Below, in pieces: positions 2,202 through 60,703 of a stretch of 64,000 nucleotides of DNA. A program made the position numbers and the translations under genes. Source of the DNA: an uncultured Bacteroidaceae bacterium (GTDB taxonomy: Bacteria; Bacteroidota; Bacteroidia; Bacteroidales; Bacteroidaceae); the NCBI GenBank assembly GCA_905236985.1, contig CAJORF010000140.1, forward strand, positions 5,973 to 69,972, written 5' to 3'. The notes under the pieces are model-generated. The model was not told where the DNA came from. It was given only the letters and a program-made list of their open reading frames with translations, and made no database searches. Within the stretch, counting starts at the first letter, position 1. Each line of letters opens with the position of its first letter.

Positions 2202-2208
2202 TAACAAT

Positions 2209-3684: not shown

Positions 3685-3693
3685 AACAACCGA

Positions 3694-9851: not shown

Positions 9852-9870
9852 ATAGATGTTTTGTTGTTTT

Positions 9871-9891
9871 GCGTCCTCAATTTGAGGACGC
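9871..9891 (+). terminator. GC-rich hairpin 20 nt after the precursor stop codon (attenuator or mRNA-stabilising stem; no downstream U-tract)
   Basis: gcgtcctca-att-tgaggacgc forms a perfect 9-10 bp stem. It is preceded by ttgttgtttt and followed by A-rich sequence, so it is not a canonical intrinsic terminator. Confidence 0.45.
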
Positions 9892-9931
9892 AAACATCAA
9901 ACTTATATCAAAATACTTCATCCATATAAAA

Positions 9932-12661: not shown

Positions 12662-12666
12662 GACTG

Positions 12667-12716
12667 CTTGTGAAATCTGGTGAAATCGCCAGCGAAGTTG
12701 TGAAAAGCTGTGAAAT
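12667..12716 (+). promoter_or_regulatory. Five 10-bp phased direct repeats (consensus cYtGTGAAAT) upstream of a near-consensus -7 box (TACCTTTA, 12743-12750)
   Basis: The units are cttgtgaaat / ctggtgaaat / cgccagcgaa / gttgtgaaaa / gctgtgaaat. GTGAAA starts at 12670, 12680, 12700 and 12710, exactly one helical turn apart. They lie in the 115-bp spacer between the two barrel genes. Confidence 0.55.
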
Positions 12717-12776
12717 GATTGGATTATTTCAGTTTAAGTACATACCTTTACAGCGTAAATCTTTATAATATAACCT

Positions 12777-15437
12777 ATGACTTTAATATTACAGCATTTT
12801 GGAGTAAGCCTTAATCGCCTCCTTTCTTTCCGGGAGCAGTTAATCCTAATGTGCCTCCTCCTTCCCCTCTCGGCGAAGGGGCAGACGGATACGCTCTCGA
12901 CCAAAGAACCGGAAACGACCATGAGGGAAGTGGCGGTGAAGGCATCGAAGATACTCATGGTGCAGAACGGCGACACGCTCGTCTACAATGCCGACCAGCT
13001 GCAGCTGGCTGCCGGTGCCATGCTGGACGAGCTGATCAATGCCTTGCCTGAGGCACGAATCAGCCCTGAGGGCGTGATTTCGGTCAAAGGAGAGCCTGTC
13101 GCCGAGCTGCTTATCGAGGGCCGTGACTTCTTCCACGGCGACCCGACGATTGCGCTGAAGAACCTGCCGGCCTTCACGGTGAAGAAGGTGAAGGTCTATC
13201 GCAAGGTTCCGCGCAATGCCTATCTGACGCGAGAGGACAAGGGAAAGAAGGCTCGCGAGACGGATCCGCTGGTCATGGATGTGCGCCTGAAACCACAGTA
13301 CCAGAACGGCATCATTGCCAATGTAGAGTCGGCCAGCGGTGTGCCCACTCAGGGCGAGAGCAAGTATCTCTATCTGGAACGACTGTTCGGACTGCACTAC
13401 AACGAGCGGCGAAGCCTCTCGGGGTACGTGGGACTGAACAATGTCAACGACAAAGGCAGGCCGCAGTCTAAGGGACTGTGGAGCGACCAGACGGATGAGA
13501 TGGGCGAGCAGCGACAAGCCATAGCCGGCGTGGACTACACCTACCAAAATCCCAGCAACAGGATGAGCATCAACTCGTCAATCCGTTTCAACGATTCCAA
13601 GGATATCCAGCTGCGGGAAACCTCCGACATGAGATACCTTGCCGAAGGCGACCTGCACGGCCTCTCCACGGCACGTAACGACAACCGACGCATCGACCTG
13701 TCCTGGAGCAGTGATTTCTTCTATCCCGCCAAGGCCTTCACGGTAGAGGTGCGACCACGCGTGGGAATCTCCAAGTCAAACGGCCTGTCCACCGACCGCT
13801 CCGCCACATTCTCAGCGCAGCAGGACGGCACGCTCAGCACGACGCTGGACAGCATCTGCACTCTGGAGGCCGAAGCTTTCCGCGCCACTCCGTTTGCCGT
13901 CAACCGCCAGACGATGAAGGCTGACAGCAGGACCAAGGGCATTGACTTCGGCCTCACCGCCCGCTCGACCGTCAGGCCTGCTTCGTTCAGACAACCATTA
14001 AATGTCACACTCTCGGCCAACTATTGGTCCAACGCAAGTACCGAGGACAGGCAGAACATCATCGACTTTGCAGACGCTTCGACACTATCGCAGCACAAGC
14101 AGCAGTATCGCAACAGCCCGAATAGCCAGGCCATGATGAACCTGGATTTATACTATACCGCATGGTCATTCATTCAGGGAGAGAAGACGGGAAGAGTTGA
14201 CCTGACGTTCAGGTCGGACTTCCGCCGCGAGAACCGCGAGAACCGCCTCTACGACCTGGACGAGCTGATGGAGGAGTACGAAGGGGGCACATGGGGAGAG
14301 CTGCCCGACGAGGAGCTCCTTCAGACGGTCATGGACACGGGAAACAGCTATGAGAGACTGACGGCAGAATACAATCAGACACTGACCGTCAACGGACTGT
14401 ACGCCTTCTCAAGGAACCTCAGCGGCTCCGTGTCGCTACCGCTCGCACTGAAGAACAGGCGCTTGCGTGACGAACGGGCGGCATCGGAGGTAAATCTCAG
14501 AAGCTGCAACGTGCTGCCCTCGCCATCCGTCAGACTTCAGTTATGGCGCATCACGCTCGGCTATTCCTACAAGACATTGCTACCCGGACTGGAAGACAGG
14601 GCGGACCGCACCGACGACAGCAACCCCCTCTTCGTCAGCATAGGCAACAAGGAACTCCGCAACGGTCACGCCCACAGGCCTACGATCAGCTATTCACAGC
14701 GATTCAGCAAGGCACACGCCTCGGCGTCGTTGCGGGCAGATTGGCTGTTCATGCAGGACGCCATCAAGCGTATGTTCTACTATGATGCCAAGACAGGCGT
14801 GACCACCGCCCAGAGCCGCAACGTCAACGGCGACTGGCAGGCCAACGTCAGCGGCAGTTTCCAGAAAGACTTTGGTAAACAGCAACAATGGCAGTTCAAG
14901 GCGGATGCCGACATGAGATTTGAGAACGACAATGAGTACGACCGCAGTGCGTCGGATGGAGAGGTGAGCATATATGCCGCCAAGAGGATGTGGCTCAACG
15001 CCAAGGCGGAGCTGACCTACAACCATGCCGGATGGCTCTTCAGTCTGCACGGCAAATACATATGGCGGCATACGAGGAGCGTGCAGAACCGCTTCAGCAA
15101 CGTCGACTACAGGAACCTGCGCTGCGGCGCTGCCGTACGAACACCTGTATGGCACGGGCTGTCGCTCACCACGGACTGCTACGTGAACACTGATCGTGGC
15201 TTGGTCAACGAACAGCTGAACCGCAGCTACGTCGTCTGGAACGCCAACGCCAGATACGACCTAAACGCCCATTGGAGCTTCCAACTCGAGGGCATAGACC
15301 TGCTGCGGCAGCTCAGGTCCACCAGCATGGGCGCCAGCGCTTACGGATGGTCGGAAGTACGCCGCAACACGCGCCCCTCTTACATCCTCCTGCACGCCGT
15401 CTACCGCTTCAATCTCTTACCTAAGGAGAAGAAATGA
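12777..15437 (+). CDS. Outer membrane beta-barrel family protein, paralogous type (plug-like N-region plus barrel; PF14905-like)
   Basis: The N-terminal region is typical of this family: VAVKASKILMVQNGDTLVYNADQLQLAAGAMLDELINALPEARISPEGVISVKGEPVAELLIEGRDFF. The C-terminus is a beta-strand ending (ILLHAVYRFNL). It is visibly more GC-rich than the first barrel gene. Its stop overlaps the next gene's start (ATGA at 15434-15437). Confidence 0.8.
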   Translation: MTLILQHFGVSLNRLLSFREQLILMCLLLPLSAKGQTDTLSTKEPETTMREVAVKASKILMVQNGDTLVYNADQLQLAAGAMLDELINALPEARISPEGVISVKGEPVAELLIEGRDFFHGDPTIALKNLPAFTVKKVKVYRKVPRNAYLTREDKGKKARETDPLVMDVRLKPQYQNGIIANVESASGVPTQGESKYLYLERLFGLHYNERRSLSGYVGLNNVNDKGRPQSKGLWSDQTDEMGEQRQAIAGVDYTYQNPSNRMSINSSIRFNDSKDIQLRETSDMRYLAEGDLHGLSTARNDNRRIDLSWSSDFFYPAKAFTVEVRPRVGISKSNGLSTDRSATFSAQQDGTLSTTLDSICTLEAEAFRATPFAVNRQTMKADSRTKGIDFGLTARSTVRPASFRQPLNVTLSANYWSNASTEDRQNIIDFADASTLSQHKQQYRNSPNSQAMMNLDLYYTAWSFIQGEKTGRVDLTFRSDFRRENRENRLYDLDELMEEYEGGTWGELPDEELLQTVMDTGNSYERLTAEYNQTLTVNGLYAFSRNLSGSVSLPLALKNRRLRDERAASEVNLRSCNVLPSPSVRLQLWRITLGYSYKTLLPGLEDRADRTDDSNPLFVSIGNKELRNGHAHRPTISYSQRFSKAHASASLRADWLFMQDAIKRMFYYDAKTGVTTAQSRNVNGDWQANVSGSFQKDFGKQQQWQFKADADMRFENDNEYDRSASDGEVSIYAAKRMWLNAKAELTYNHAGWLFSLHGKYIWRHTRSVQNRFSNVDYRNLRCGAAVRTPVWHGLSLTTDCYVNTDRGLVNEQLNRSYVVWNANARYDLNAHWSFQLEGIDLLRQLRSTSMGASAYGWSEVRRNTRPSYILLHAVYRFNLLPKEKK

Positions 15438-17653
15438 CAAAACATTTTCCACATACCCATCAGCTCAACACCATGGACTGTGGACCAGCCTGTCTGCGCA
15501 TGGTTGCACAGTCGTATGGTAAGCACTATCGACTTGAAACATTGCGTGAGCGGAGTTTCATCACCCGTGAAGGGGTTAGTATGTTGGGCATTGCTGATGC
15601 AGCTGAGACAATAGGATTCCGATCGTTGGGCGTTAGGACCACAATGAAGGAACTGGTACAACAACGCCCGCTACCCTGCATCCTCCACTGGAATCAGAAC
15701 CATTTCGTGGTTCTATATGACATCAGAAAGCACTGGCGAACTGGGGCTTTGTCGTTCTACATCGCTGACCCTGCATCACAGCTGGTGCGCTACGGCGAAG
15801 AGGAGTTTACGCGCTGCTGGGCAAATACAGTGTCGGCACAGCAGGAACCCATGGGCGTAGCATTGCTGCTGACACCAACACCAGAATTTAATGTGATCGC
15901 TGATGAGCCGAAGGTATCAACGCGACGCGACCTGCTCTTCTTTGCCCGCTACCTGCTGCCTCACCGCAAGGCTTTCGTCCAGTTGATTATGGGGATGCTT
16001 GTGGGTATGGCACTACAGCTGGCAGCGCCGTTCCTGACGCAGGCGATGGTGGATCAGGGCATAGGCGGACAAAACCTTGGCTTTATTACCTTAATCCTGC
16101 TTGCACAGTTAGGTTTGTTCGTGGCACAGCTTATCGTTGGTTTCCTCCGTAGCTGGGTGACATTGCATGTCAATGCCCGAATAGATGTGGCGCTCATCTC
16201 AGACTTCCTGATGAAACTGATGCGGCTGCCACTACGCTACTTCGACACAAAGATGACGGGTGATATCATGCAGCGCATCGGAGATCACAGCCGCATCAAG
16301 AGTTTCCTGATGGGAAATTCCGTCAACATCCTTTTCTCGTTAGCCAATTTCTTCATTTTCGGTGCCATATTGGCCTACTATAACTGGCAAATCCTCTCCA
16401 TCTTTCTCATAGGAAACTCACTCTACGCGACGTGGGTACTCTCGTTCATGAAGTACCGACGTGAACTGGACATTCGGCGTTTCAACCAAAGTTCGGCAGA
16501 GCAGAGTACGGTTATTCAGCTCATTCAGGGTATGCAAGAAATCAAACTGAACAATTGCGAACGGCAGAAACGGTGGGAGTGGGAACGAATACAGGTGAAG
16601 CTTTTCCGTATCAGCGTAAAAGGGCTCACGATAGGGCAGATACAAGAGGTAGGGTCAGTCTTCTTCACACAGACGACGCATATCCTCATCTCGTTTATCG
16701 CCGCCAAAGCCGTTGTGGATGGTCAGATGACACTGGGCATGATGATGTCGCTGACGTATATCATCGGTCAAGTGTCGGCACCGATAGGACAGTTCATCGG
16801 CTTCGCCCAAAGTCTGCAGGATGCCAAGATTAGCATGGAACGTCTGAGTGAGGTGCATGAACAGCAGGATGAGGAGATGAACGCCGAAGGACGACTCCAC
16901 GAATTGCCCAATCAAGGTGACATCTCCGTGGAGGATGTCACCTTCAGTTATAGTGGTGCCGATCGTGACTACGCTCTTGACCATCTGTCGCTAACCATTC
17001 CCGAAGGAAAAGTGACAGCCATAGTGGGAGCCAGCGGAAGCGGAAAGACGACACTCGTGAAACTTCTTTTGGGGTTTTATGAGCCGCAGCGAGGACATAT
17101 ACGGGTTGGGGGCACTCCTCTAAGCTTGATTGACCCCCAAGTGTGGCGCGCCGCCACAGGAAGTGTGATGCAGGAAGGGTTCATCTTCTCTGACACCATC
17201 GCGCGGAACATCGCCGTAGCAGATGAGCATATCGATACGAAGCGGCTGCAAAAGGCGGTGAAGATAGCAAATATCAGCGACTTCATCGAAGGCTTGCCCT
17301 TAGGCTACAGCACGAAAATCGGCATGGAGGGCAACGGCGTAAGCCAGGGGCAGCGCCAACGGTTGCTCATAGCCCGTGCCGTGTATAAAGACCCGCAGTA
17401 TATCTTCTTTGACGAGGCCACCAACGCCTTAGACGCCAATAACGAACGTATCATCATGGAACAGTTACACGATTTTTACAAAGGGCGTACAGTGGTCATC
17501 GTGGCCCATCGACTCAGTACCGTCCGTGATGCCGATAACATCATTGTGCTCGAACATGGGAAGGTGATAGAACAGGGGACACATGAGCAATTGACGGCAA
17601 AGCACGGGGCATATTATACTTTAGTAAGGAATCAGCTGGAATTAGGGAGTTAA
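15434..17653 (+). CDS. Second peptidase C39 domain-containing ABC transporter
   Basis: The C39 motif is HQLNTMDCGPACLRMV with NHFVVLYDI...FYIADP. Motifs include Walker A GASGSGKTT, a variant signature VSQGQRQR, and Walker B YIFFDEATNALD. Confidence 0.95.
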   Translation: MTKHFPHTHQLNTMDCGPACLRMVAQSYGKHYRLETLRERSFITREGVSMLGIADAAETIGFRSLGVRTTMKELVQQRPLPCILHWNQNHFVVLYDIRKHWRTGALSFYIADPASQLVRYGEEEFTRCWANTVSAQQEPMGVALLLTPTPEFNVIADEPKVSTRRDLLFFARYLLPHRKAFVQLIMGMLVGMALQLAAPFLTQAMVDQGIGGQNLGFITLILLAQLGLFVAQLIVGFLRSWVTLHVNARIDVALISDFLMKLMRLPLRYFDTKMTGDIMQRIGDHSRIKSFLMGNSVNILFSLANFFIFGAILAYYNWQILSIFLIGNSLYATWVLSFMKYRRELDIRRFNQSSAEQSTVIQLIQGMQEIKLNNCERQKRWEWERIQVKLFRISVKGLTIGQIQEVGSVFFTQTTHILISFIAAKAVVDGQMTLGMMMSLTYIIGQVSAPIGQFIGFAQSLQDAKISMERLSEVHEQQDEEMNAEGRLHELPNQGDISVEDVTFSYSGADRDYALDHLSLTIPEGKVTAIVGASGSGKTTLVKLLLGFYEPQRGHIRVGGTPLSLIDPQVWRAATGSVMQEGFIFSDTIARNIAVADEHIDTKRLQKAVKIANISDFIEGLPLGYSTKIGMEGNGVSQGQRQRLLIARAVYKDPQYIFFDEATNALDANNERIIMEQLHDFYKGRTVVIVAHRLSTVRDADNIIVLEHGKVIEQGTHEQLTAKHGAYYTLVRNQLELGS

Positions 17654-17757: not shown

Positions 17758-18276
17758 ATGAAGAATGAATTAAAAGGGCTGCGTGAGCACAGCGAAGAAG
17801 TGGAGATGCTGATGGGGCAGACACCCAACTGGATCTTTCGATGGGGCATCTCCATGATTGCCGTTATCATGACATCGATGCTCGCAGCCTCGTGGTTTAT
17901 CCATTGGCCTGAAACAATGGTGGTGCGAGGTACAATAGGTATAACAGGGCCTGACACGGTATGGTACATGCAAACAGAACTGACGGCTGTCGAAATACGA
18001 CAGCTGCGACAAGGCATGACGGCGCACGTCTCTCTTGATAACAAAGACGAAGAATGGGGCTACTATAATGCTGTCGTTGATAAACTACCTCAATATCCTG
18101 ATTCCATCAGGCGATTTCCCGTCATCATCAAGTTAATTTCAAACCATACTGAATCGGGGCATCAAGAAACAGAGTATATACATATAGAACGACGCACCGC
18201 CCCATGGTTACTTGATGCGACCGCTACCATATACCTTGCAGACAGAAGCTTATTTGATAGACTGATGAGGAGGTGA
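17758..18276 (+). CDS. Miniature HlyD-family membrane fusion protein lacking the coiled-coil hairpin
   Basis: The N-terminus (HSEEVEMLMGQTPNWIFRWGISMIAVIMTSMLAASWFIHWPETMVVRGTI) aligns by eye with the N-terminus of the 429-aa HlyD at 3694. The C-terminus (VEIRQLRQGMTAHVSLDN...ATATIYLADRSLFDRLMRR) aligns with that protein's C-terminal barrel (VEVGQLANVKLTN...GHVEIITKPKRIIQRLFDNL). About 250 residues in the middle are absent. The start could be the ATG at 17758 or the TTG at 17740. Confidence 0.7.
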   Translation: MKNELKGLREHSEEVEMLMGQTPNWIFRWGISMIAVIMTSMLAASWFIHWPETMVVRGTIGITGPDTVWYMQTELTAVEIRQLRQGMTAHVSLDNKDEEWGYYNAVVDKLPQYPDSIRRFPVIIKLISNHTESGHQETEYIHIERRTAPWLLDATATIYLADRSLFDRLMRR

Positions 18277-18420
18277 TTCGAGGAGCGATTGAGCAAATAA
18301 AAGATAAATGTTTCCCACCGATGCGGGCTCTATATTTAATCAAAAACCGTGCTATCTATCGAAAGCACGGGGCAAATGTAGGGATTAGTTGTGACTTGAC
18401 AAAGGAAAAGGGTGAAAAAA

Positions 18421-18453
18421 TGACACCTGACACCTGTTTCAAACAAAATTTTG
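18421..18453 (+). repeat. Intergenic repeat copy 1 (TGACACC-TGACACC heptad doublet plus TTTCAAACAAAATTTTG)
   Basis: Sequence tgacacctgacacctgtttcaaacaaaattttg. It belongs to a six-copy family in this window. Confidence 0.85.
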
Positions 18454-18508
18454 CAGGCTTGAGGGTAAAAAATCTGCACTTCTTTGAGTCGTTTTCAAAA
18501 ACTATTCT

Positions 18509-18516
18509 TACCTTTG
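18509..18516 (+). promoter_or_regulatory. Bacteroidota -7 promoter box TACCTTTG
   Basis: It matches the TAnnTTTG consensus 38 nt upstream of the ATG at 18554. A TTTG lies about 25 nt further upstream. Confidence 0.6.
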
Positions 18517-18553
18517 CGCCGACATAACCACAAAACAAATAAACATCCTCATT

Positions 18554-20596
18554 ATGAAATTTTTCAAGAAACTGCCGCTGCTCGTTGCAGCATTGAGCAT
18601 GATGTGCATATCATGCAGTAAGGATTTTCAGGGCGACATCGACGACCTGAACGACAAGTACAGCCAGATGGACCAGCGCGTCAAGAGCCTCGAGACACAG
18701 GCTGCCTCCATGAACTCACAGCTCTCACAACTCTCCGTGCTCGCGACAGCCGTGGAGAGCGGTTTCTACGTAACCGAAGTGCGCACCAGCACCGACGGCT
18801 ATGAGCTCACGCTGAGCAACGGGCACAAGTTCATCCTCCAGAACGGACCCGACAATACCATCGCCCAGGCACCCAATATCAGCATGACTGTCATAGGAGG
18901 CGTACACTACTGGACCATCAACGGTATGCTCGTCACCGACGCTTCCGGCAAGCCAGTACCCGCCACCAGCCACACGCCGATTGTGCGTTGGAACGACGTC
19001 AACAACCAATGGACGATCTCCGTTGACGGCGGCATGACCTTCATCACCCTCAACCTCTTCTCTTCCATTGTCATCAACGACGAGGCACTCCTTCAGGTCA
19101 TCAACAACTTCATCAGCCAGAACAGCACCACCATCATCAACCAGGAGGTGCTCTTCCAGATCATCTCCACCTACATCCAGCAGAACTACTCCAAGCTCTT
19201 CAACATCGACGTGATGCGCCAGGTCATCATCAACTATCTCGACCTCCACTACACCACCATCTTCAACTACGAACTCCTGCAGCAGATCTTCACCCAGTAT
19301 AACTTCGAGTATGCCTACCAGCACATCGATGCTGACATCATCACCAACATACTCATCAACTTCATCACCGAGCACAAGGAGATCTTCATCAACAACGACG
19401 TGCTCTATGAGATCATTTCCAACTACATCGAAGTCAACAAGATCGACATCTTCAACAACACGATCATCGCTGAGGTCATCAACAACTACATTGAGCAGAA
19501 CACCAACTTCATCAACATCGACCTCATCCGTCAGGTTGTCAACAACTACATCGACGAGCACCAGGACATCATCTTCAACAACGACGTCTTCATCGAGATC
19601 CTCAAGACGTATGTCCAGAACAACTACACAGTCATCTTCTCGCAGGACATCCTCCATCAGGTCATCAACCTCTACGTCACGCAGAACCGCACCACCATCT
19701 TCAACGAGACGCTCATGTGGGAGATTATCAACCAGTTCGTCGAGAACAACTACAATACCATCATCAACCAGAACATCCTCCAGGAGATCATCAATAACTA
19801 CATCACCGTTAACAAGACCACCGTCATCAACGAGGACATCCTCTACGAGGTCATCCGCAACTACTTCCAGAACAACTTCAACATCATCATCGATGAGACA
19901 CTCATCCAGCAGATCATCAACAACTACATCACGCAGCACCAGACCACGCTCATCGACATTGACATTGTGCGCAACGTGGTCAACAAGTACGTGCAGCAGA
20001 ACTACCGCGTCATCTTCAACGTTGATGTCCTCAGCCAAGTCATCACCAACTACTTCGAGACCAATCAGACTGTCATCAAGCAGTACTTCAGTGATTACAC
20101 GGGCATCATCAAGAACGTCATCGTTGACAACGAGGTATGCGTCGTGGAGCTCAACAACGGACAGACTGTTCAACTGCCCGTTTACGATGCCTACGCCAAA
20201 GTGCGCGACCGTGTGCAGAGCATCGTCGTAGTGCCCAACGTCAACGGCCACCTCACCTACCACTACGGTTACGACATGATGTACCTCACCTACATCGTCA
20301 CGCCCGCCTCCATGGCCGGTATCATTGCCGACAAGTACCAAAACGGCGAGATGACCGTGGAATTCCTGGGTATCGACGAGGATGGAAATATGTCAAACTT
20401 CAACATCGGCTACGACAACATCTCGGGCGACTCCGACGGCAAGCTGCAACTGATGACACCCAAGCTCGACTCCTACAGCTACATGGGCACGCCCAAGTAC
20501 GTGTCCATCGCGCTGCGCGTTAAGGACAACGTAGCTGGCGGCACCGACTATGTCACCACCTTCACCCCCATCGACTGGGAAGAGAGCAACTGGTAA
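18554..20596 (+). CDS. Surface lipoprotein candidate: DUF4988-like coiled-coil N-domain plus about 16 tandem 21-aa Ile/Asn-rich repeats plus a C-terminal beta-rich domain
   Basis: The signal peptide and lipobox are MKFFKKLPLLVAALSMMCISC, followed by an acidic SKDFQGDIDD. The coiled coil reads DLNDKYSQMDQRVKSLETQAASMNSQLSQL, followed by GFYVTEVRTSTDGYELTLSNGHKFILQNG. The repeat array spans roughly nt 19064-20081, with consensus IFNxdxLxqVInNYIxqNyttI. Confidence 0.85.
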   Translation: MKFFKKLPLLVAALSMMCISCSKDFQGDIDDLNDKYSQMDQRVKSLETQAASMNSQLSQLSVLATAVESGFYVTEVRTSTDGYELTLSNGHKFILQNGPDNTIAQAPNISMTVIGGVHYWTINGMLVTDASGKPVPATSHTPIVRWNDVNNQWTISVDGGMTFITLNLFSSIVINDEALLQVINNFISQNSTTIINQEVLFQIISTYIQQNYSKLFNIDVMRQVIINYLDLHYTTIFNYELLQQIFTQYNFEYAYQHIDADIITNILINFITEHKEIFINNDVLYEIISNYIEVNKIDIFNNTIIAEVINNYIEQNTNFINIDLIRQVVNNYIDEHQDIIFNNDVFIEILKTYVQNNYTVIFSQDILHQVINLYVTQNRTTIFNETLMWEIINQFVENNYNTIINQNILQEIINNYITVNKTTVINEDILYEVIRNYFQNNFNIIIDETLIQQIINNYITQHQTTLIDIDIVRNVVNKYVQQNYRVIFNVDVLSQVITNYFETNQTVIKQYFSDYTGIIKNVIVDNEVCVVELNNGQTVQLPVYDAYAKVRDRVQSIVVVPNVNGHLTYHYGYDMMYLTYIVTPASMAGIIADKYQNGEMTVEFLGIDEDGNMSNFNIGYDNISGDSDGKLQLMTPKLDSYSYMGTPKYVSIALRVKDNVAGGTDYVTTFTPIDWEESNW

Positions 20597-20650
20597 GCCC
20601 AACGCCACTCAGCACTACACATCTATATATCATATATCATACGCACTACA

Positions 20651-23341
20651 ATGAGAAAACTACATCATATACTCATCGTGCTGACGGCGTCTGTCATCTC
20701 ATCCGCGCTGCTCAATTCATGCGGCAAGGATTTCCAGGATGACATTGACAAGCTTAACCAACAGCACCAAAGCATTGAGCAGCGCGTGAACACCCTCGAG
20801 ACCAAGGCCACGACGCTCAATACACAGCTTGAGCAACTCGCCAAGCTCTCCACAGCCGTAGAAAACGGATTTTACATCACCTCCGTAGCCACCACAGCCG
20901 AAGGCTATGAGCTCACACTCAGCAACGGACGTAAGATCTCCCTCTACAACGGCACCGGCAACACCCTCACCAGCACACCCCTCATCAGCATGACGCAGGT
21001 CAGCGGACTCTACTACTGGTCGCTCAACGGGATGCTGCTCACCGATGCTTCAGGCAACCCCATTCGCACCACCACCGTCACACCCGTCGTGCGCTACGAC
21101 TACGAGAACCTGAAGTGGATCGTCTCCCTCGACGGCGGCACCACCTTCCAGGATGTCAACGCCCTCGTGTCCGTGGTCATCAACGACACCGTGCTCCTCG
21201 AAATCATCAACAACTACGTCCGTGAGAACCGCACCACGCTCTTCAACCAGCAGATGCTCTACCAGATCATCTCCACATACATCCAGCGCAACTACACAGA
21301 GCTGTTCAACGTGGAGTTGCTCGACCAGGTTGTGGCCACCTATATCCGCGAGCACTACGCACGTCTGTTCAACTACGAACTGCTTGAGAAGATCTTCACC
21401 CAGTACGACTTCGAGTACTACACCAGCCAGATTGATGTCACACGACTCTCCAACCTCATCATCACCTTCATGCAGGAGCACCAGGAAATCTTCACCGACA
21501 ACGAAGTGCTCTTTGAGATCGTCTCCAACTACATTGAGGTCAACAAGACAACCATCTTCACCACCGAGATGCTCCTGGAAGTCATCAACAACTTCATCGA
21601 CAACCACTCCGACTACATCAACAAGGAGCTCCTCACACAGGTCATCGGCAACTACATCGACCAGAACCGTGAGGTCGTCTTCAACACGGAGGTCGTCCGA
21701 CAAATGATGGCCGAGTACGTCCGACGCTACTACACCCAGATCTTCAGCCAGGATATCCTCGTGCAAATGCTCAACTACTACGTCTCCCGGGACCACAACA
21801 CCATCTTCAACGAGACGCTCATACGCGACATCATCAACGAGTACGTCGTCAACAACCACACAAGCATCTTCAGCGAAGACATCCTTCGGCTCATCGTGCG
21901 CACATACATCGAGGAGAACGGCTCAACCATCATCAACCGTGACGTGCTCGTGGAAGTCATCGCCAACTACTTCCAGCGCAACTACGACCTCTTCATCGAC
22001 CGCACCGTCATCGAGCGCACCATCAACGACTATGTTGAGCGCCACCACGACACCCTCATCAGCACCGACATCATCGAATCTGTCATCAACCGCTTCCTGC
22101 AGGAGTACTACACCGAGGTCTTCGACAAGGACCTGATCACGAAGATTGTCAACAACTACTTCGAAGTCAACAGGCAAACGCTCTACGAGATCATCAAGAA
22201 GAACGCTGACCCCATCCGCGAGGTCAACATCAACGAGGACATCTGCACCATCATCCTGCGCGACGGTCAGGCCATACAGTTGCCCATCTACGATGCCCAC
22301 GCCAGGCTGCGTGACCGCGTTCAGAGCCTCGTCATCATGCCCAATGCCAGCGGACGGCTTACCGTCGTCGTTGACGAGGACAATCCCGAAGGCGAGCTCA
22401 CTTTGAACTATCTGGTGGCACCAACATTCATGGCCGAGGTCATTGCCAACAAGAGTTATAACAACGAAATATCCCTGAGCCTCCTGCTCGTGGACAAAGA
22501 GGGCAACATCAGCAACATCGACGTCTCCGAAGTATCGGCAGATGCGTCAGGTGTGCTCACGCTCAAGACCCACCTCCCCGTAGCTGACTACCTCAATTAT
22601 CATTCATGGGACTCAGACATCAACTATGATGACCTGAAGTGGACTATTGCCCTGCACGTACAGGAGAACAAGATCGGTGCCACCGACATCATGACCGAGT
22701 TTACGCCTGTGAACGTCTCCGAGTTCGACGAGCGCATCACACAGGAGATTCCCGAGGAATACCTCAGAAGGATGAGACCCTACATGCCCATCTATTCCGG
22801 CAACAGGCCACCGAGCCTCGAAGGGACCTACTGTATGCATATCACAACATTAGTATATGACTCCACGCCCAATGGATTCCAGCCAGGAAGACAATTCCTC
22901 GACTACATCGCAGATTTCACTCATCAAGACATGAAGAAAAACGTCGTTCTCTTCAGACAGGAAGAACGTAACAGCGCTGGAGTATATACGACATCTGAAT
23001 GGACTGAAGCCAAAGTTCTCGGGAGAAACGACAATTTCACGATATTCATTATTGTCAATACAGTAGAAAGTGACGGAGTAACAACAGCAAAACTGGCAAC
23101 ACTGCTTTCCGGAACGATGAGTTCGGGCGGAATCAACAACTTCTATCAAGGCTTCGTCCTGCTGGATAAGCACGACCCTAACAACAAAGTGATGCCTGTT
23201 GGAGAATTCCGCATCTTTAACGACGCAGATGGATGGAGTGAATCGACAACATGGCTAGTACGTCAAATGGTGTCTGACGCCATGGAGGTGAAAGGAATGC
23301 CCTCCTTCGATCTGCCGTGGGCTACTGCTGCCAAGCGCTGA
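20651..23341 (+). CDS. Paralogous lipoprotein with the same N-domain and 21-aa repeat array (about nt 21170-22200) plus an extra C-terminal domain of about 210 aa
   Basis: The lipobox is LLNSC followed by GKDFQDDIDK. It is collinear with the upstream paralog through the repeat array and the downstream VQLPIYDAHARLRDRVQS segment. The unique C-terminal extension begins at EFDERITQEIPEEYL. Confidence 0.85.
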   Translation: MRKLHHILIVLTASVISSALLNSCGKDFQDDIDKLNQQHQSIEQRVNTLETKATTLNTQLEQLAKLSTAVENGFYITSVATTAEGYELTLSNGRKISLYNGTGNTLTSTPLISMTQVSGLYYWSLNGMLLTDASGNPIRTTTVTPVVRYDYENLKWIVSLDGGTTFQDVNALVSVVINDTVLLEIINNYVRENRTTLFNQQMLYQIISTYIQRNYTELFNVELLDQVVATYIREHYARLFNYELLEKIFTQYDFEYYTSQIDVTRLSNLIITFMQEHQEIFTDNEVLFEIVSNYIEVNKTTIFTTEMLLEVINNFIDNHSDYINKELLTQVIGNYIDQNREVVFNTEVVRQMMAEYVRRYYTQIFSQDILVQMLNYYVSRDHNTIFNETLIRDIINEYVVNNHTSIFSEDILRLIVRTYIEENGSTIINRDVLVEVIANYFQRNYDLFIDRTVIERTINDYVERHHDTLISTDIIESVINRFLQEYYTEVFDKDLITKIVNNYFEVNRQTLYEIIKKNADPIREVNINEDICTIILRDGQAIQLPIYDAHARLRDRVQSLVIMPNASGRLTVVVDEDNPEGELTLNYLVAPTFMAEVIANKSYNNEISLSLLLVDKEGNISNIDVSEVSADASGVLTLKTHLPVADYLNYHSWDSDINYDDLKWTIALHVQENKIGATDIMTEFTPVNVSEFDERITQEIPEEYLRRMRPYMPIYSGNRPPSLEGTYCMHITTLVYDSTPNGFQPGRQFLDYIADFTHQDMKKNVVLFRQEERNSAGVYTTSEWTEAKVLGRNDNFTIFIIVNTVESDGVTTAKLATLLSGTMSSGGINNFYQGFVLLDKHDPNNKVMPVGEFRIFNDADGWSESTTWLVRQMVSDAMEVKGMPSFDLPWATAAKR

Positions 23342-23369
23342 ATTGTGAGACGCCAGCATACTTCAAAGA

Positions 23370-23406
23370 GTATTGGGCTGCCCAACCGGCAGCCCAATAC
23401 TTTTTT
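23370..23406 (+). terminator. Rho-independent terminator
   Basis: A 13-bp perfect stem gtattgggctgcc / ggcagcccaatac has the loop caacc and is followed by tttttt. It lies 29 nt after the stop at 23341. Confidence 0.85.
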
Positions 23407-23408
23407 CA

Positions 23409-23437
23409 TGACACCTGACACCTATTTCAAACAAAAA
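23409..23437 (+). repeat. Intergenic repeat copy 2 (truncated at the palindrome by the stop codon of the convergent ATPase gene)
   Basis: Sequence tgacacctgacacctatttcaaacaaaaa. It abuts the stop at 23438-23440. Confidence 0.8.
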
Positions 23438-24610
23438 TCAATACGTCAGACCAAAGGCCCATAGAGGAATAATGTTTCCTGAGCCATATTCTATGTCATC
23501 CTTAACCACATAACCCTCCTTGGCCTCCGAGACTTGCTTCTTTCCCTTCTTCCTGCCTCCAACTTCAAACGTCTTTCCATCTATCTCAAAATCGCTGATT
23601 CGAGAACTGATAACCTCTGTCGTTACTCTCATCTGGTTATAGAAGAATGTCTCACGGATGTTGCCAATGTCTGTCGAGTTAGTGCCCAAAAGGTAGGCCA
23701 TGGTAGTATTGTCAAGATACACTTTCTCCACTTTCCCTACTCCACGGATGCCTCCTGTATCATCGCGCAACTGGCTAATCATACCCGCCTGTTCCATATA
23801 AAGGAAATAGTCGGGCAAAACGTTGCGACTGACGCCGATAACCGAGGCCAACGAATCCATGACAGGCTTAAAGGGAACACTTTTTGCAATGACAGACAAT
23901 AGTTTTTTCAGTTTCCTACCCGTAGAGGCATTCATATTGGCATATTGTGGAATATCCACTTCCATGGTCTGGTTCACGATCTGACGCAGCCGAATGTCGA
24001 AATCGCTCTCGTCCGAGAACGGATAATACCCCTTTCGCAAGTATTCCTTGAAGAATGGCAGCGGATGGCTGATGTCATCGATACGTGCCTTATGATCTAT
24101 AATCTCTTCGAACGTATAGACTGGAACGTCTGTATGATGGAAAAGCATGAGATATTCCCTGAACGACAAACCCTGCATCATAAAGATGAGAGCACGTCGG
24201 CTCAAGTCTGCCTGGCCTTTGTAGATATCAAGCACCGACGATCCTGTAAAGCCCACTTTCAGCTCTGGATGCGAATCATAGATCTGTTTCAGTTCACTTG
24301 ACCAGTTTTCGTACTTGTGTATTTCGTCAATGAACATCTGCTCACCGCCTTCCTTAACAAATTCATCCACGACAGCAACCAACGTGTGAGAGGAAAAGTA
24401 GAGATGATCGGCACTTACGTAGAACATCTTTCGGGATGCCCTGTTCTCTTTAATGTACTGAAGAACAATTGTTGACTTGCCCACACCACGAGGGCCTACA
24501 AGTCCGAACATACGAGATTCCCAACTTATCTTTTCGAACATATAACGATGAAAGACTGAAGTCGTCTGCCTCAATTGGCTCTCCATAAACTCTACCAATG
24601 ACGTATCCAT
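23438..24610 (-). CDS. AAA-family ATPase (AAA_14 plus DUF4143-type ATP-binding protein)
   Basis: The likely start is MDTSLVEFMESQL at 24610, because a -7 box lies inside the longer ORF that starts at 24649. Walker A is GPRGVGKST and the Walker B-like motif is MFIDEIH. Overall length and layout are typical of this widespread family. Confidence 0.8.
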   Translation of the reverse strand: MDTSLVEFMESQLRQTTSVFHRYMFEKISWESRMFGLVGPRGVGKSTIVLQYIKENRASRKMFYVSADHLYFSSHTLVAVVDEFVKEGGEQMFIDEIHKYENWSSELKQIYDSHPELKVGFTGSSVLDIYKGQADLSRRALIFMMQGLSFREYLMLFHHTDVPVYTFEEIIDHKARIDDISHPLPFFKEYLRKGYYPFSDESDFDIRLRQIVNQTMEVDIPQYANMNASTGRKLKKLLSVIAKSVPFKPVMDSLASVIGVSRNVLPDYFLYMEQAGMISQLRDDTGGIRGVGKVEKVYLDNTTMAYLLGTNSTDIGNIRETFFYNQMRVTTEVISSRISDFEIDGKTFEVGGRKKGKKQVSEAKEGYVVKDDIEYGSGNIIPLWAFGLTY

Positions 24611-24636
24611 AAATGCTATTCTTTTGAAATTCGCCG

Positions 24637-24644
24637 CAAAATTA
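24637..24644 (-). promoter_or_regulatory. Bacteroidota -7 promoter box TAATTTTG for the AAA ATPase gene
   Basis: The reverse complement of caaaatta is TAATTTTG, 27 nt upstream of the start at 24610. Confidence 0.55.
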
Positions 24645-24651
24645 ATCAAAT

Positions 24652-24701
24652 TGCACTAAAACAGTGCAGATTTTCAATAAAAAATGCACTATAAGAGTGC
24701 A
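24652..24701 (-). promoter_or_regulatory. Two 17-bp palindromic operator-like sites TGCACT-N5-AGTGCA, centres 33 bp apart, overlapping the -33 region of the ATPase promoter
   Basis: The sites are tgcactaaaacagtgca (24652-24668) and tgcactataagagtgca (24685-24701). Both have perfect 6+6 half-sites. Confidence 0.6.
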
Positions 24702-24730
24702 AATTTCTTGATTAGATACATTCTCACGCC

Positions 24731-24770
24731 TGACACCTGACATCGATTTCAAACAAAATTTTGTTTTTTG
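24731..24770 (+). repeat. Intergenic repeat copy 3
   Basis: Sequence tgacacctgacatcgatttcaaacaaaattttgttttttg. It contains the perfect AT palindrome aaacaaaattttgttt at 24751-24766. Confidence 0.85.
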
Positions 24771-24876
24771 AGACCAGATGTGCGTTTGGGCAATGGATAG
24801 GAATGGCTGAGACAGGGTGATCATGTTAGACGGTCTCACTAATAGAGAGCCTTCCCATGACCTAAGCGGAGGTCGC

Positions 24877-25275
24877 TTATTTCTTGCCTTTCTTGTTGTA
24901 GTGGTCGATACCTCGGCGGACGTTTTCGATGACAGCTTCTGAAGTGAAGGTAGCACCCGTGATGACATCGACTTCCTGAGTGGCGGCTTTCTTGACGGAG
25001 AGGCCGTTCCATTTGTTGAGGAGGTCGCGCTTGATGAGGGCGAAGTACTTCGGTGTTTCGAGGTTCTTGAGCGCTTCAATCTTTTCAATCACACCTTTTC
25101 TGATGTAGATCTTCAGAGGTGTGGGTCCGGCATAACCCTCGACATCTGCTGCCAGAGTGGTTGTGTTGATGATGGTCGTGTCCTTGATTTGTGTGATAGG
25201 GGTGTTATCCTGTGCAGAGAGAGACAGGGAAGAAAGTGATAATAAAGAGAATAGGATGAATTGTTTTGCTTTCAT
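24877..25275 (-). CDS. Small secreted FMN-binding domain protein
   Basis: The signal peptide is MKAKQFILFSLLSLSSLSLSAQ. DVITGATFTSEAV matches the FMN_bind flavinylation-type motif (S/T)GA(S/T). Length is 132 aa. Confidence 0.75.
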   Translation of the reverse strand: MKAKQFILFSLLSLSSLSLSAQDNTPITQIKDTTIINTTTLAADVEGYAGPTPLKIYIRKGVIEKIEALKNLETPKYFALIKRDLLNKWNGLSVKKAATQEVDVITGATFTSEAVIENVRRGIDHYNKKGKK

Positions 25276-25335
25276 AATGACTTTAAATAATACGTTTCCC
25301 TTCTATGACACATCAAACAGGAAAAGGTTTATTCC

Positions 25336-25376
25336 TGACACCTGACACCTATTTCAAACAAAATTTTGTTTTTTTG
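25336..25376 (+). repeat. Intergenic repeat copy 4
   Basis: Sequence tgacacctgacacctatttcaaacaaaattttgtttttttg, with the palindrome at 25356-25371. It lies 7 nt from the P-type ATPase stop codon. Confidence 0.85.
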
Positions 25377-25382
25377 TAAAGG

Positions 25383-27959
25383 CTAACGACGCTTGCGGGG
25401 ATGTTGGAAGAAGCGTACTCCTTCGCCGACCAATAAGACGGGAGCCGTCAGGAGGATGATCATCGTCCAATGCGTGACTTCAAGCGGTTCAACGTTGAAC
25501 ATCTGACCGCCAAAGGTGACAATAAGGATCTGACCGAAGAATATGATGCAGACAATCATCAGGAAGCCCTTGCAACCACGCAGGTCGAAGGCACTGCGCC
25601 CCGTCAGGAACGCACGGGCATTGAAGAGGTTCCAGAACTGTAGCATCACAAAGATAGTGAAGAAGAGGCTCTGCTCGTAGGGCGTGAGCCCATCACGCTC
25701 AAAGTACCACAACATAGCGGTCATCACGACGAAGAATAAGCCACCGAGGCTCCAGATAAATCTCCACATGGGCGTGGAGATAATGAACTTACGGCGGTCA
25801 CGGGGACGTTCCAGCATCACCGAGGGCGTAGGGGGCAACGAGGCAAGTGCCATAGCGGCGAAGGTATCCATGATAAGGTTGACCCAGAGCATCTGCGTGA
25901 CGGTCAACGGTGCCTCTGTTCCCATGAAAGCCCCAGCGAGCACGGTGAGGCAGGCGCAGACATTCACCGTCATCTGGAAGAGGATGAAACGCTGGATGTT
26001 GCGATAGAGGGAACGCCCCCACATGACAGCACGACCGATGCTGGCGAAGGAGTTGTCGAGGATGGTGATGTCCGAGGCTTCCTTAGCCACAGCTGTACCA
26101 TCGCCCATAGAGAGTCCGACGTGAGCGGCGTTTAGGGCGGGGGCATCGTTGGTGCCGTCGCCGGTGACAGCGACCACTTCACCGTTAGCCTGCAACGCCT
26201 CAACCAAACGCTTCTTGTCCATCGGACGGGCGCGGGCAATGATGACGATGCCGCGAGCCCGCTCACGCAGTTCCTCGTCGGTGAGGGCAGCAACCTCGGG
26301 ACCCGTGATGACTTCTCCTTTCGTGAGTCCTATCTGACGACCTATCTCTGTAGCAGTGGCGGGTGTGTCGCCTGTGACGATCTTCACGTCGATGCCTGCG
26401 GTCAGGCACTCCTGCACGGCAGCAGGGACATCGGTACGGACGGGGTCTGCAATGGCTACGAGAGCATCTAAATGAAAGGTGAGAAGTGAAAAGCGTGAGG
26501 TGAAAAGGGCTTCGCTACAGGAAACGACAGAAGAGGGAACTTCGGCATGAGCAAGGGCGAGGGTGCGGAGACCGCGCTGCTGCCATTGCTGCAATTCAGA
26601 ACTGAGAGGAGAGAGGGAAGAGGGGAGATGATCTCCTGAGCACATCGCCATGACAATCTCGGGAGCACCCTTGATATATAAGGTGTCATCGATGCGGGTC
26701 GCCATATACTTGCGCTCCGTGGTGAAGGGGATTTCCTCGGTGATGTGGGCGGATTCGCGCAGGGTAATGTAATCTTGCCCTTGCTCGCGCAGCCAGAGCA
26801 GGAGGGCACCTTCGGTAGGGTTGCCCAAGACGCGGGTATCATCGAGGGAGGCGGTGCTGTTAACAGCGATGTTCGTCGCGATAAAATCGCGACATAAGAG
26901 ACGTATCTCCGCCACGCGCATCTGGTTTTGGGTGAGGGTGCCGGTTTTGTCCGTGCAGATGACGGTGGCGGCACCCATGGTCTCACAGGCGTGCATGCGG
27001 CGCACGAGGTTGCCCGTCTTGAGCATCCGACGCATGGAATAAGCCAAGGAGAGGGTGACGGCCATGGGAAGACCTTCGGGGACGGCCACGACGATGAGCG
27101 TCACAGCCAGCATCACCGACTGAAGGAGGTAGGCGAGGAAAGTATAGGTCAAGATCGGCTCTGCCGCGACAAGCCACATGACAATACGTCCTACAACGAC
27201 GAGGACGGCGATGGCGTAGCTGGTGCGTGAGATCAGCAGGCCGAGACGGTCGAGCTGCTCATTGAGGGGCGTGCGCACGGTGGCGTCGATCTGTGCTTCG
27301 GTGAAGACATGACCTGCTTCAGTGGCATCACCTACAGCCGCGACACACATCACGCCGTGACCCTCAAGCAGTTTCGTGCCACGCAGGACAGCATCGCTGG
27401 GGAAGGTGGCATCTGCATCTTGCTCCTCAGGTAGGATGCTCTTGTGACAGACGGGTTCGCCGGTAAGGGTCGATTCATCCACCTGCATCTGTGTCGCTTC
27501 GAGCAACTGACCATCAGCAGGTATCTCGTCGCCCGTAGCCAAGAGCACGATATCACCGACGACGATGTCGCTGCGAGGGACAAGCGTCTCATGGCCATCA
27601 CGGATAACGCGGACTGGTTCCTTGTCGTTCTGCTGGTTGAGAAGGTTGAACTCACGGTCAGCCTGATACTCAAACCAGAAGGCCAAGCCCGTAGCGAGAG
27701 CGATAGCAACGATGATGCCCACAGGCTCAAAGAACGCTGTGGCATCAGCACCAAGACCATAGTATTCGTAGAAAGAGATACCTATGCTAAGCACAGCAGC
27801 AAAGAGCAGGATGACAATCAACGGGTCGGTGAACTTTGCTGCGAATTTACGCCACCAAGGCGTGCGCTCACAAGGTGTCAGAACATTAGCACCATGAGCG
27901 GCGCGTGAAGCGATAACCTCATCATTTGTGAGGCCTTTTGACAAGAAATCCTTTTTCAT
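25383..27959 (-). CDS. Calcium-translocating P-type ATPase (P2 type)
   Basis: The motifs are TGEP (LTGEPV), the phosphorylation site CTDKTGTLTQN, and the hinge VTGDGTNDAPAL. There are about ten hydrophobic segments. The start is taken at the ATG at 27959 (MKKDFLSKGLTNDEV), because a TATTTTTG box sits at 27967-27974 inside the longer ORF. Confidence 0.9.
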   Translation of the reverse strand: MKKDFLSKGLTNDEVIASRAAHGANVLTPCERTPWWRKFAAKFTDPLIVILLFAAVLSIGISFYEYYGLGADATAFFEPVGIIVAIALATGLAFWFEYQADREFNLLNQQNDKEPVRVIRDGHETLVPRSDIVVGDIVLLATGDEIPADGQLLEATQMQVDESTLTGEPVCHKSILPEEQDADATFPSDAVLRGTKLLEGHGVMCVAAVGDATEAGHVFTEAQIDATVRTPLNEQLDRLGLLISRTSYAIAVLVVVGRIVMWLVAAEPILTYTFLAYLLQSVMLAVTLIVVAVPEGLPMAVTLSLAYSMRRMLKTGNLVRRMHACETMGAATVICTDKTGTLTQNQMRVAEIRLLCRDFIATNIAVNSTASLDDTRVLGNPTEGALLLWLREQGQDYITLRESAHITEEIPFTTERKYMATRIDDTLYIKGAPEIVMAMCSGDHLPSSLSPLSSELQQWQQRGLRTLALAHAEVPSSVVSCSEALFTSRFSLLTFHLDALVAIADPVRTDVPAAVQECLTAGIDVKIVTGDTPATATEIGRQIGLTKGEVITGPEVAALTDEELRERARGIVIIARARPMDKKRLVEALQANGEVVAVTGDGTNDAPALNAAHVGLSMGDGTAVAKEASDITILDNSFASIGRAVMWGRSLYRNIQRFILFQMTVNVCACLTVLAGAFMGTEAPLTVTQMLWVNLIMDTFAAMALASLPPTPSVMLERPRDRRKFIISTPMWRFIWSLGGLFFVVMTAMLWYFERDGLTPYEQSLFFTIFVMLQFWNLFNARAFLTGRSAFDLRGCKGFLMIVCIIFFGQILIVTFGGQMFNVEPLEVTHWTMIILLTAPVLLVGEGVRFFQHPRKRR

Positions 27960-60562: not shown

Positions 60563-60630
60563 CTTATCAACCTGCATCCTTCACCATGAAAAAAACAAAA
60601 ATTTTGTTTGAAATCGATGTCAGTTGTCAG
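60563..60630 (-). repeat. Intergenic repeat copy 5 (long form, about 68 bp, opposite orientation to copies 1-4)
   Basis: Plus-strand sequence: cttatcaacctgcatccttcaccatgaaaaaaacaaaaattttgtttgaaatcgatgtcagttgtcag. The reverse complement carries CTGACAA-CTGACAT-cgATTTCAAACAAAATTTTTG. Confidence 0.85.
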
Positions 60631-60703
60631 CTTGTTCCTTGCCCTCCGCTTGGAAGATAAGGAACTCTGCCGTGCTGTTTCTTATCAAATGTTTTTCTGC
60701 CAT
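60620..60703 (-). pseudogene. N-terminal 27-codon remnant of a RhuM-family (virulence protein RhuM-like) gene, truncated by repeat copy 5
   Basis: The minus-strand translation MAEKHLIRNSTAEFLIFQAEGKEQADN* has IRNSTAEFLIFQ..G, which I recognise as the conserved RhuM-family N-terminus (from memory). Its own TAATTTTG box lies upstream. The reading frame runs into the repeat and stops at a TGA inside it. Confidence 0.5.

Follow-up and report, generated by a model that had tools for sequence, protein, structure and literature searches.

A conserved lipoprotein gene pair of rumen Prevotellaceae with a 21-residue repeat array predicted to be helical

We analyzed a 64,000-nucleotide stretch of DNA (the window, to which all coordinates refer) from an uncultured rumen Prevotella-family bacterium, and focused on two tandem genes that encode paralogous lipoproteins. 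Each protein contains 16 units of a 21-residue repeat that is predicted to be helical and matches no catalogued family. Gene A (18554..20596, + strand) encodes the "headless" paralog of 680 residues and gene B (20651..23341, +) the "headed" paralog of 896 residues. Open reading frame (ORF) calling placed both genes exactly where an earlier note, made from the letters of this DNA, had reported tandem paralogs (18554-23341). The two proteins are 45% identical and 71% similar across 691 aligned residues by BLASTP. The array has a fixed length and appears to interrupt a DUF4988 module. We consider the case evenly balanced that A and B together constitute a surface stalk-and-head binding module.

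The repeat is clearly delineated by several measures. Autocorrelation of residues 166-520 gave peaks only at lags of 21, 42, and 63, with a mean BLOSUM62 score at lag 21 of 1.43/1.19 for the two proteins and a score of about 0 at the best lag that is not a multiple of 21. Together with an in-register cut and a column profile, this defined the array as residues 173-507 of A (19070..20074, +) and 176-510 of B (21176..22180, +). In both proteins, 15 units contain 21 residues and one, unit 7, contains 20. This shorter unit is common to A and B and conserved across the family. Thus, the previously claimed number of about 16 copies and the 21-residue period both hold, while the description of the repeats as "strictly 21-residue" fails at unit 7. 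The consensus of the 32 units of A and B, [ILV][FI][ND]x[DE]h[LI]x[QE][IV][IV]xN[YF]hxx[NH]xTx, has strong columns at positions 2 (F/I), 3 (N/D), 5 (D/E), 7 (L/I), 10-11 (I/V), and 18 (N/H), recovering the Ile/Asn-rich unit described earlier. Position 14 is Y or F in all 32 units. The 335-residue arrays lack Pro entirely and contain at most two Gly (0-2).

Units with the same index in A and B are 48% identical, compared to 28% for units with different indices. Therefore, the array was complete before the duplication that gave rise to A and B, and the units have since stayed distinct by position. At the DNA level, tandem periodicity within the arrays was detected only at 19594-19932, in A, as a 126-nucleotide period (2.7 copies, 70% identity) and a 63-nucleotide period (4.6 copies, 64% identity). 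This pattern is consistent with two-unit blocks having been duplicated in A long ago. Since the periodicity is confined to part of A, the array is old rather than the product of recent expansion.

The repeat did not match any named family, as the earlier note had supposed. Pfam searches with the array alone returned no match even at E values up to 10, and thus no leucine-rich repeat (LRR), tetratricopeptide repeat (TPR), HEAT, Sel1, or pentapeptide model, the five families that had been discounted from the consensus. NCBIfam searches with the whole proteins and the array yielded nothing above cutoff, and PDB sequence searches with the family profile, the N-terminal domain, the C-terminal domain, and both head profiles gave nothing useful. 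Sub-threshold matches to DUF445, TIGR04540, and YozE were judged to be compositional. A literature search did not find a described 21-residue repeat in Prevotella lipoproteins.

To obtain a structural model, we ran AlphaFold2 on A with a 63-sequence alignment and assigned secondary structure with DSSP. The model has a long N-terminal helix (residues 26-68), followed by seven short strands between residues 73 and 156, and three further strands at residues 519-542. In the array, each unit forms one helix of 14-18 residues, predicted at low to moderate confidence, and the helix is broken in every unit. Residues 176-514 contain no strands, just two isolated β-bridge residues (424 and 466) that lie 42 residues apart. 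The predicted local distance difference test score (pLDDT) was 62-79 for residues 380-500. At the sequence level, the conserved polar residues are suggestive of helix caps: an N-cap box formed by N/D at position 3 with D/E at position 5, and a C-cap at the N/H of position 18. The hydrophobic moment of the arrays peaked at 85 degrees, corresponding to a 4.2-residue period and an h-h-x-x pattern; in 189-residue segments, the power at periods of 3.5 (heptad) and 2.1 (strand) was about 9-27% of the 4.2 peak. This spectrum makes a β-solenoid unlikely, and a continuous coiled coil as well. The earlier note had proposed a solenoid with either an Asn ladder or stacked short helices. With one helix per unit, stacked helices fit, while the Asn ladder does not, as there are no strands and the period is 4.2 rather than about 2.

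The C-terminal half of the array has an additional regularity. Across 63 homologs, position 19 alternates between aromatic and polar residues in units 9-16, with aromatic fractions of 0.98, 0.06, 0.84, 0.02, 1.00, 0.00, 0.75, and 0.13. This alternation, the 42-residue separation of the two β-bridge residues, and the 126-nucleotide DNA period in A point to a 42-residue structural period in this half. We infer that the units may fold as antiparallel helical hairpins that stack into an α-solenoid.

DUF4988 (PF16378; Pfam gathering cutoff 30 bits) was the only credible Pfam match in either protein. Its N-terminal part covers residues 32-165 of A (18647..19048, +; 84.1 bits, model positions 1-135 of 183), where the AlphaFold model shows a coiled-coil helix and then a small β region, and residues 37-170 of B (20759..21160, +; 85.0 bits, positions 3-137 of 183). 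A DUF4988-type N-domain with these two elements had indeed been recognized from the sequence. The C-terminal part of the module is not contiguous with the N-terminal part, but lies 335 residues downstream. When the array was deleted in silico, A matched DUF4988 positions 1-183 of 183 at 90.1 bits and B matched positions 3-183 of 183 at 92.6 bits, assigning residues 508-542 of A (20075..20179, +) and 511-545 of B (22181..22285, +) to the C-terminal part. In the canonical DUF4988 protein P0116, the module continues with a short β segment, "...CVFEKVTTDPNNAIFTLGDGTVITVPL", that resembles the post-array "IIKNVIVDNEVCVVELNNGQTVQLPVY" of the proteins described here. These data lend moderate support to the array being an insertion within the DUF4988 module. 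The support is moderate because the gain in score is modest (6-8 bits) and the post-array piece alone is too short to match. If the two DUF4988 parts fold together, the ends of the array would be adjacent. The array may therefore be a looped-out side arm with both ends back at its base, rather than an in-line stalk; an even number of units and hairpin pairing would suit such a geometry. Of the three parts that the earlier note had described as shared by A and B, all are present, and a fourth had been missed: about 170 residues after the array that comprise the DUF4988 C-terminal part and a β-sandwich.

As the earlier note had proposed, we used a profile of the repeat unit to gauge its spread. 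Among 1.84 billion representative proteins, 31 matched at E ≤1e-3, of which 14 matched at ≤1e-30. The strong matches belong to the same lipoprotein family, and the search did not lead to any characterized family. A search of 5.8 billion clusters identified about 115 family members, all annotated as "hypothetical" and with DUF4988 as the only precomputed Pfam assignment in the shared region. Genome matches were to metagenome-assembled genomes recovered from the rumen, omasum, and reticulum and labelled as uncultured Prevotellaceae, Prevotella sp., or Bacteroidales.

The length of the array is strikingly constant within this family. In 72 homologs, we found both of the motifs that flank the array, one at the end of the DUF4988 N-terminal part and one after the array. 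The spacing of these motifs was identical in 69 of the 72 and within two residues in the other three. A hidden Markov model (HMM) of the repeat counted 14-17 units per homolog, and the span was constant, at about residues 175-510. A distant subgroup of complete proteins of 584-643 residues (P0098-P0114) has apparently fewer and less regular units. The earlier note had proposed looking for copy-number variation of the repeat among strains; by these comparisons, the array behaves as a repeat-built domain rather than as a contingency locus with such variation.

The pairing of the two genes is also conserved. We retrieved DNA from nine distinct organisms, and in every one a short gene (about 670 codons) precedes a long one (870-1320 codons) on the same strand, and A-type and B-type proteins form separate similarity groups. 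The genes that flank the pair are unrelated between the loci of these nine organisms.

Beyond the array, A and B share a β-sandwich. In the A model, the C-terminal domain (residues about 550-680; 20201..20593, +) is an immunoglobulin (Ig)-like β-sandwich with pLDDT of 80-92. Foldseek matched this domain to Ig-type domains in the PDB at E values of about 1e-3. The A model also matched the Bacteroides ovatus GH98 protein at 22% identity, a match that is not assignable to a domain. The corresponding region of B (22307..22705, +) was assigned by BLASTP and by its homology to the A model. As had been noted from the sequence, B then continues with an additional C-terminal domain of about 210 residues. 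This head spans residues 686-896 (211 residues; 22706..23338, +), and its AlphaFold model consists of two short helices and about 11 antiparallel strands (pLDDT 80; predicted template modeling score 0.77). We found no Pfam or PDB sequence match for the head. Its weak Foldseek matches were all up-and-down barrels, namely a haemophore, a lipocalin, avidins, GID4, and the TbpB C-lobe; for the avidin targets, the template modeling score (TM-score) was 0.55-0.59 on the target, in matches that are weak (E ≥0.034).

Heads vary widely among the long proteins of the family. Ten orthologs have the B head type, as do six secreted proteins of about 280 residues in which it stands alone, which suggests from sequence similarity that the domain is also used outside the lipoprotein family. 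Stand-alone secreted B-head proteins of 282 residues are encoded on contig L014 (5287-8849) and also on L015 and L016. These genes directly follow, with a 4-nucleotide overlap, a gene for a 905-residue protein with faint matches to Por_Secre_tail, the C-terminal tail of type IX secretion system (T9SS) substrates. The commonest head is of the CPDxxHPHMIDLGLPSGTLWACCNVGA...VRPV type. Seven of 12 ortholog heads of this type match Pfam Lcl_C (PF07603) at E ≤0.01, the best at 8e-8, and one matches Fib_succ_major. In the Legionella adhesin Lcl, it is Lcl_C that binds glycosaminoglycans (PMC11162425). VWA or Big_2 domains are present in other orthologs. The head of B in the window belongs to a different sequence type and does not match Lcl_C.

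Both proteins begin with a lipoprotein signal. The N terminus of A consists of MKFFKKLPLLVAALSMMCISC followed by SKDFQGDIDD, and that of B of MRKLHHILIVLTASVISSALLNSC followed by GKDFQDDIDK. By inspection, the signal peptides (18554..18616 in A and 20651..20722 in B, both +) end in ...MMCIS-C21 and ...LLNS-C24, respectively, which qualifies both proteins as lipoproteins. In an alignment of 63 homologs, the lipobox Cys is nearly invariant. This agrees with the lipoprotein signal and acidic post-Cys segment that had been described for the pair. The published surface export signals of Bacteroidota that follow this Cys are K-(D/E)2, Q-A-(D/E)2, or CS(D/E)2 (PMC6222051). Surface display of A and B is plausible by analogy with other DUF4988 proteins, because a DUF4988 lipoprotein of Phocaeicola vulgatus is recognized by an antibody, being the target of a species-specific antibody for detecting P. 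vulgatus (PMC12078515), and because DUF4988 precedes BACON domains in other matching proteins. N-x-S/T sequons at the ends of units were considered as glycosylation sites and set aside, since the eight observed are not an enrichment over the 4-6 expected. The Bacteroidota O-glycosylation sequon D[ST][AILVMT] does not occur in A and occurs three times in B.

The layout of the A-B pair is operon-like. The genes lie on the same strand and are separated by a spacer of 54 nucleotides. The sequence TACCTTTG (18509..18516, +), which we take to be the Bacteroidota -7 promoter motif TAnnTTTG, was read directly from the DNA 38 nucleotides before the ATG of A; our sigma-70 promoter scan does not cover promoters of this type. 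Downstream of B, RNA folding revealed an intrinsic terminator (23365..23407, +), an 18-bp hairpin followed by a T-run, with a folding energy of -29.8 kcal/mol (z = -7.8; none of 200 shuffled sequences was as stable). The terminator scanner did not report this + strand hairpin, which the folding confirmed. The promoter motif and strong terminator that had been claimed for these genes are therefore both present. Given the spacer, the single upstream -7 motif, and the single strong terminator, A and B most likely form a two-gene operon. An Rfam search of window positions 18000-25600 returned no match above threshold.

How might such a pair function? In the reading that we consider evenly balanced, that of a surface stalk-and-head binding module, the acidic N terminus would direct the putative surface export of both lipoproteins. 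Their N-terminal helices would oligomerize, possibly A with B and perhaps also along the arrays. The units would form helix-loop repeats, stacked into a rigid α-helical arm of fixed length, with those in the C-terminal half probably paired as 42-residue helical hairpins. This arm would keep the head and the Ig-like domain at a distance from the membrane. The head would bind a ligand, with A serving as the headless scaffold partner. In most orthologs, the family probably captures or adheres to glycans, given that the Lcl_C head of the Legionella adhesin binds glycosaminoglycans (PMC11162425). Possible, although we hold it only tentatively, is a broader proposal: that the array is an undescribed α-helical repeat fold that arose by insertion into DUF4988, and that A and B co-assemble through it into a heteromeric arm whose length is exactly fixed. 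Such an arm would serve as the base of a modular surface display system specific to rumen Prevotellaceae, with ligand specificity set by exchangeable heads (lectin-like, calycin-like, VWA, or Ig).

Several results weigh against the stalk-and-head reading. The A model is poor overall, with a mean pLDDT of 58 and values below 50 for residues 213-375. Foldseek searches with the full-length A model against the PDB and viral structures found no significant structural analogue of the array; the best match spanning it, the HEAT protein INTS4, was not significant (E 1.4e-3, TM-score 0.12, root-mean-square deviation 32 Å). The B head likewise had no significant Foldseek match, with a best E of 0.034 and TM-scores on the query of ≤0.35, and the Lcl_C matches of the ortholog heads fall below the gathering score (34.9 bits). 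An interaction between A and B is suggested only by gene linkage and by equal array geometry, including the 20-residue unit. Although the post-Cys C-S/G-K-D-F segment is acidic, a single acidic residue follows the K, compared to two in the published signals (PMC6222051). Finally, no neighboring transporter or polysaccharide utilization locus hints at a ligand.

We weighed this reading against four alternatives, two of which concern the nature of the genes and of the array. One is that A is not a gene and that the true gene is the antisense ORF at 18725..20341 (-), or that both ORFs are unexpressed relics. Indeed, the European Nucleotide Archive (ENA) record of the source contig (L001) calls this 538-residue antisense ORF in place of A, and the exact sequence of A is absent from a collection of 15 billion proteins. 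However, the + strand product matches DUF4988 at 84 bits, begins with a signal peptide, and is 45% identical to B. Its homologs fall into more than 100 clusters (34-72% identity), and the substitutions are conservative. Moreover, A is 100% identical to a gene called on the + strand in a Logan assembly (contig L002), and B is identical to P0063 on ENA ERZ1667814 scaffold_124, the source contig. The antisense frames remain open over the arrays only because C is frequent at the third positions of the repeat codons (GC skew about -0.23), making their openness an artefact of codon composition. We find this alternative scarcely credible. Long spurious ORFs over the arrays occur at 18725-20341 (-), 19311-20231 (+, in another frame), and 21050-21859 (-). 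It is also improbable that the array is a continuous long coiled-coil fiber or a β-solenoid with an Asn ladder. In favor of this alternative, the repeat length is a multiple of seven (three heptads), and a coiled coil exists at the N terminus; the lack of Pro and near lack of Gly are unusual for helix-loop repeats, and AlphaFold confidence is low across half of the array. Nevertheless, the 4.2-residue period dominates over those of 3.5 and 2.1, cap-like residues at positions 3, 5, and 18 mark each unit boundary, and AlphaFold interrupts the helix in every unit without placing any strands in the array.

The other two alternatives accept the helical array and assign the pair a different role. 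In one, A and B are a nutrient-capture accessory in which the calycin-like head of B binds haem, a vitamin, or a lipid and passes it to an outer-membrane transporter, as do lipoproteins of the BtuG, HmuY, and TbpB types. The weak Foldseek matches of the head are all ligand-binding barrels (the Riemerella haemophore 8xjc, a histamine-binding lipocalin, avidins, and the TbpB C-lobe), and surface lipoproteins of Bacteroidota are known to capture vitamins and iron (PMC6143338, PMC13142918). Yet no match reached an E value below 0.03 and TM-scores on the query did not exceed 0.35, a TonB-dependent transporter does not consistently adjoin the pair in any of the loci we examined, and most orthologs bear lectin-like rather than barrel heads. 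We therefore regard nutrient capture as unlikely, if worth keeping in view. In the other, A and B are outer-membrane lipoproteins that face the periplasm and act as fixed-length tethers or spacers, similar to Braun's Lpp, while the head makes contact with peptidoglycan or with a partner in the inner membrane. An invariant array length would fit a molecular ruler, the export signal is matched only in part, and the N-terminal anchor and coiled coil weakly match the Lpp/OprI alanine-zipper lipoproteins of NCBIfam (E about 0.01). These Lpp matches are, however, far under the cutoff (16 bits versus 43). In addition, the orthologs bear heads of kinds typical of extracellular adhesion (Lcl_C-like, VWA, and Big_2), and DUF4988 is otherwise found N-terminally in BACON-containing proteins and in the antibody-recognized protein of P. 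vulgatus (PMC12078515). A periplasmic tether is accordingly rather hard to favor.

We also recorded other features of the window. Upstream of the pair are two bacteriocin-type export sets. One, at 2137-7172, consists of genes for an OEP protein, an HlyD protein, and a C39-peptidase ATP-binding cassette (ABC) transporter. The second, at 9869-17653, includes a C39-peptidase ABC transporter (15434-17653) preceded by genes for two large outer-membrane proteins of the OMP_b-brl_3 type (9869-12661 and 12777-15437); this label follows the Pfam record, and our scan of the window matched only the first of the two. In other genomes, neither set is conserved beside the lipoprotein pair. At 35072-43114 (+) lies a giant ORF of 2680 residues that does not match the HMM of the 21-residue repeat. 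Finally, a dispersed intergenic repeat of about 29-35 nucleotides, (A/C)TGACACCTGACACCTNTTTCAAACAAAATTTT, occurs at 18420-18448, 23408-23436, 24730-24758, and 25335-25363 (all +). These four copies bracket the A-B pair, an AAA_14 gene, and an FMN_bind gene. A fifth copy lies 35 kb away at about 60600-60632 (-). By chance, no copy would be expected. The repeat is absent from the orthologous loci and was found on just one other metagenome contig (L017). We considered it as a cassette boundary or att site and rejected this possibility, as the fifth copy is on the other strand at about 60.6 kb and the orthologous loci lack the repeat.

What is already known is the general form of a Bacteroidota lipoprotein that carries variable binding domains on a DUF4988 base. 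What is new is an uncatalogued 21-residue helical repeat, its insertion in DUF4988 with a conserved length of 16 units, and a conserved pair of headless and headed genes restricted to ruminant Prevotellaceae. The rumen is dominated by Prevotellaceae, most of whose surface proteins are functionally obscure, and this family provides a conserved two-gene module with lectin-like and other heads. It could explain how uncultured rumen bacteria attach to plant fiber, host mucus, or other microbes. A 21-residue unit without Pro or Gly, present in 16 copies inside another domain, is an unusual combination and a target for structural genomics. There is also a lesson for annotation: since the codon bias of the repeat keeps antisense frames open, gene callers may choose the wrong strand, as happened with A.

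The array can be compared with several known systems. Among sequences, the weak matches of the repeat profile (E 1e-12 to 1e-5) were to phage-fiber-like "TTISGDIVAQIPSDYVSD" proteins (P0136, P0137, P0139, and P0142) and to a "PVSKEEIAQIVESKIQENKET" protein (P0145). P0141, a protein of 2461 residues with helical repeats of about 22 residues, also matched weakly. None of these six proteins is covered by any Pfam family. The "TTISGDIVAQIPSDYVSD" proteins and P0145 resemble the array in having a period of about 21 residues and a T-T-I...I..QI...Y-like motif, with scores that are inflated by repetition. They lack the DUF4988 module, and the "TTISGDIVAQIPSDYVSD" units differ from those of the array in their mid-unit Pro and Gly and in a one-residue offset.

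Among repeat folds, LRRs (LxxLxLxxN, 20-29 residues), which are common in surface proteins of Bacteroidota, resemble the array in unit length and in their conserved Asn and aliphatic residues. However, the array does not match any LRR model at an E value of 10, has a different consensus, and is helix-dominated without a β-sheet layer. The array resembles α-solenoids, such as HEAT/ARM repeats and the 24-residue LRV, in that short helices joined by short loops are arranged in tandem; in the array, this arrangement has a 42-residue superperiod in the C-terminal half. It differs from them in having no Pfam sequence similarity, in loops that lack Pro and Gly, and in that its paired helices are sequence-equivalent 21-mers. 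Exchangeable apolipoproteins contain tandem amphipathic helices of about 22 residues with a broad hydrophobic face, punctuated by Pro between units. They and the array are both tandem amphipathic helices of about 21-22 residues; the array lacks the Pro and shares no sequence similarity with them.

At the level of whole proteins, the closest counterparts of A and B are other DUF4988 lipoproteins, such as A6KZV4 of P. vulgatus and the BACON-containing P0116-P0120, which likewise start with a lipoprotein signal and continue with a coiled-coil helix, a small β region, and then variable domains. Canonical DUF4988 proteins lack the 335-residue array, which in A and B splits the module after model position about 137. 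Lcl of Legionella differs from the family in that its stalk is a collagen triple helix and it is not a lipoprotein, and the head of B in the window has no similarity to Lcl_C. Nevertheless, Lcl and the family share a common stalk-plus-head logic, and most long B orthologs end in a domain that matches Lcl_C.

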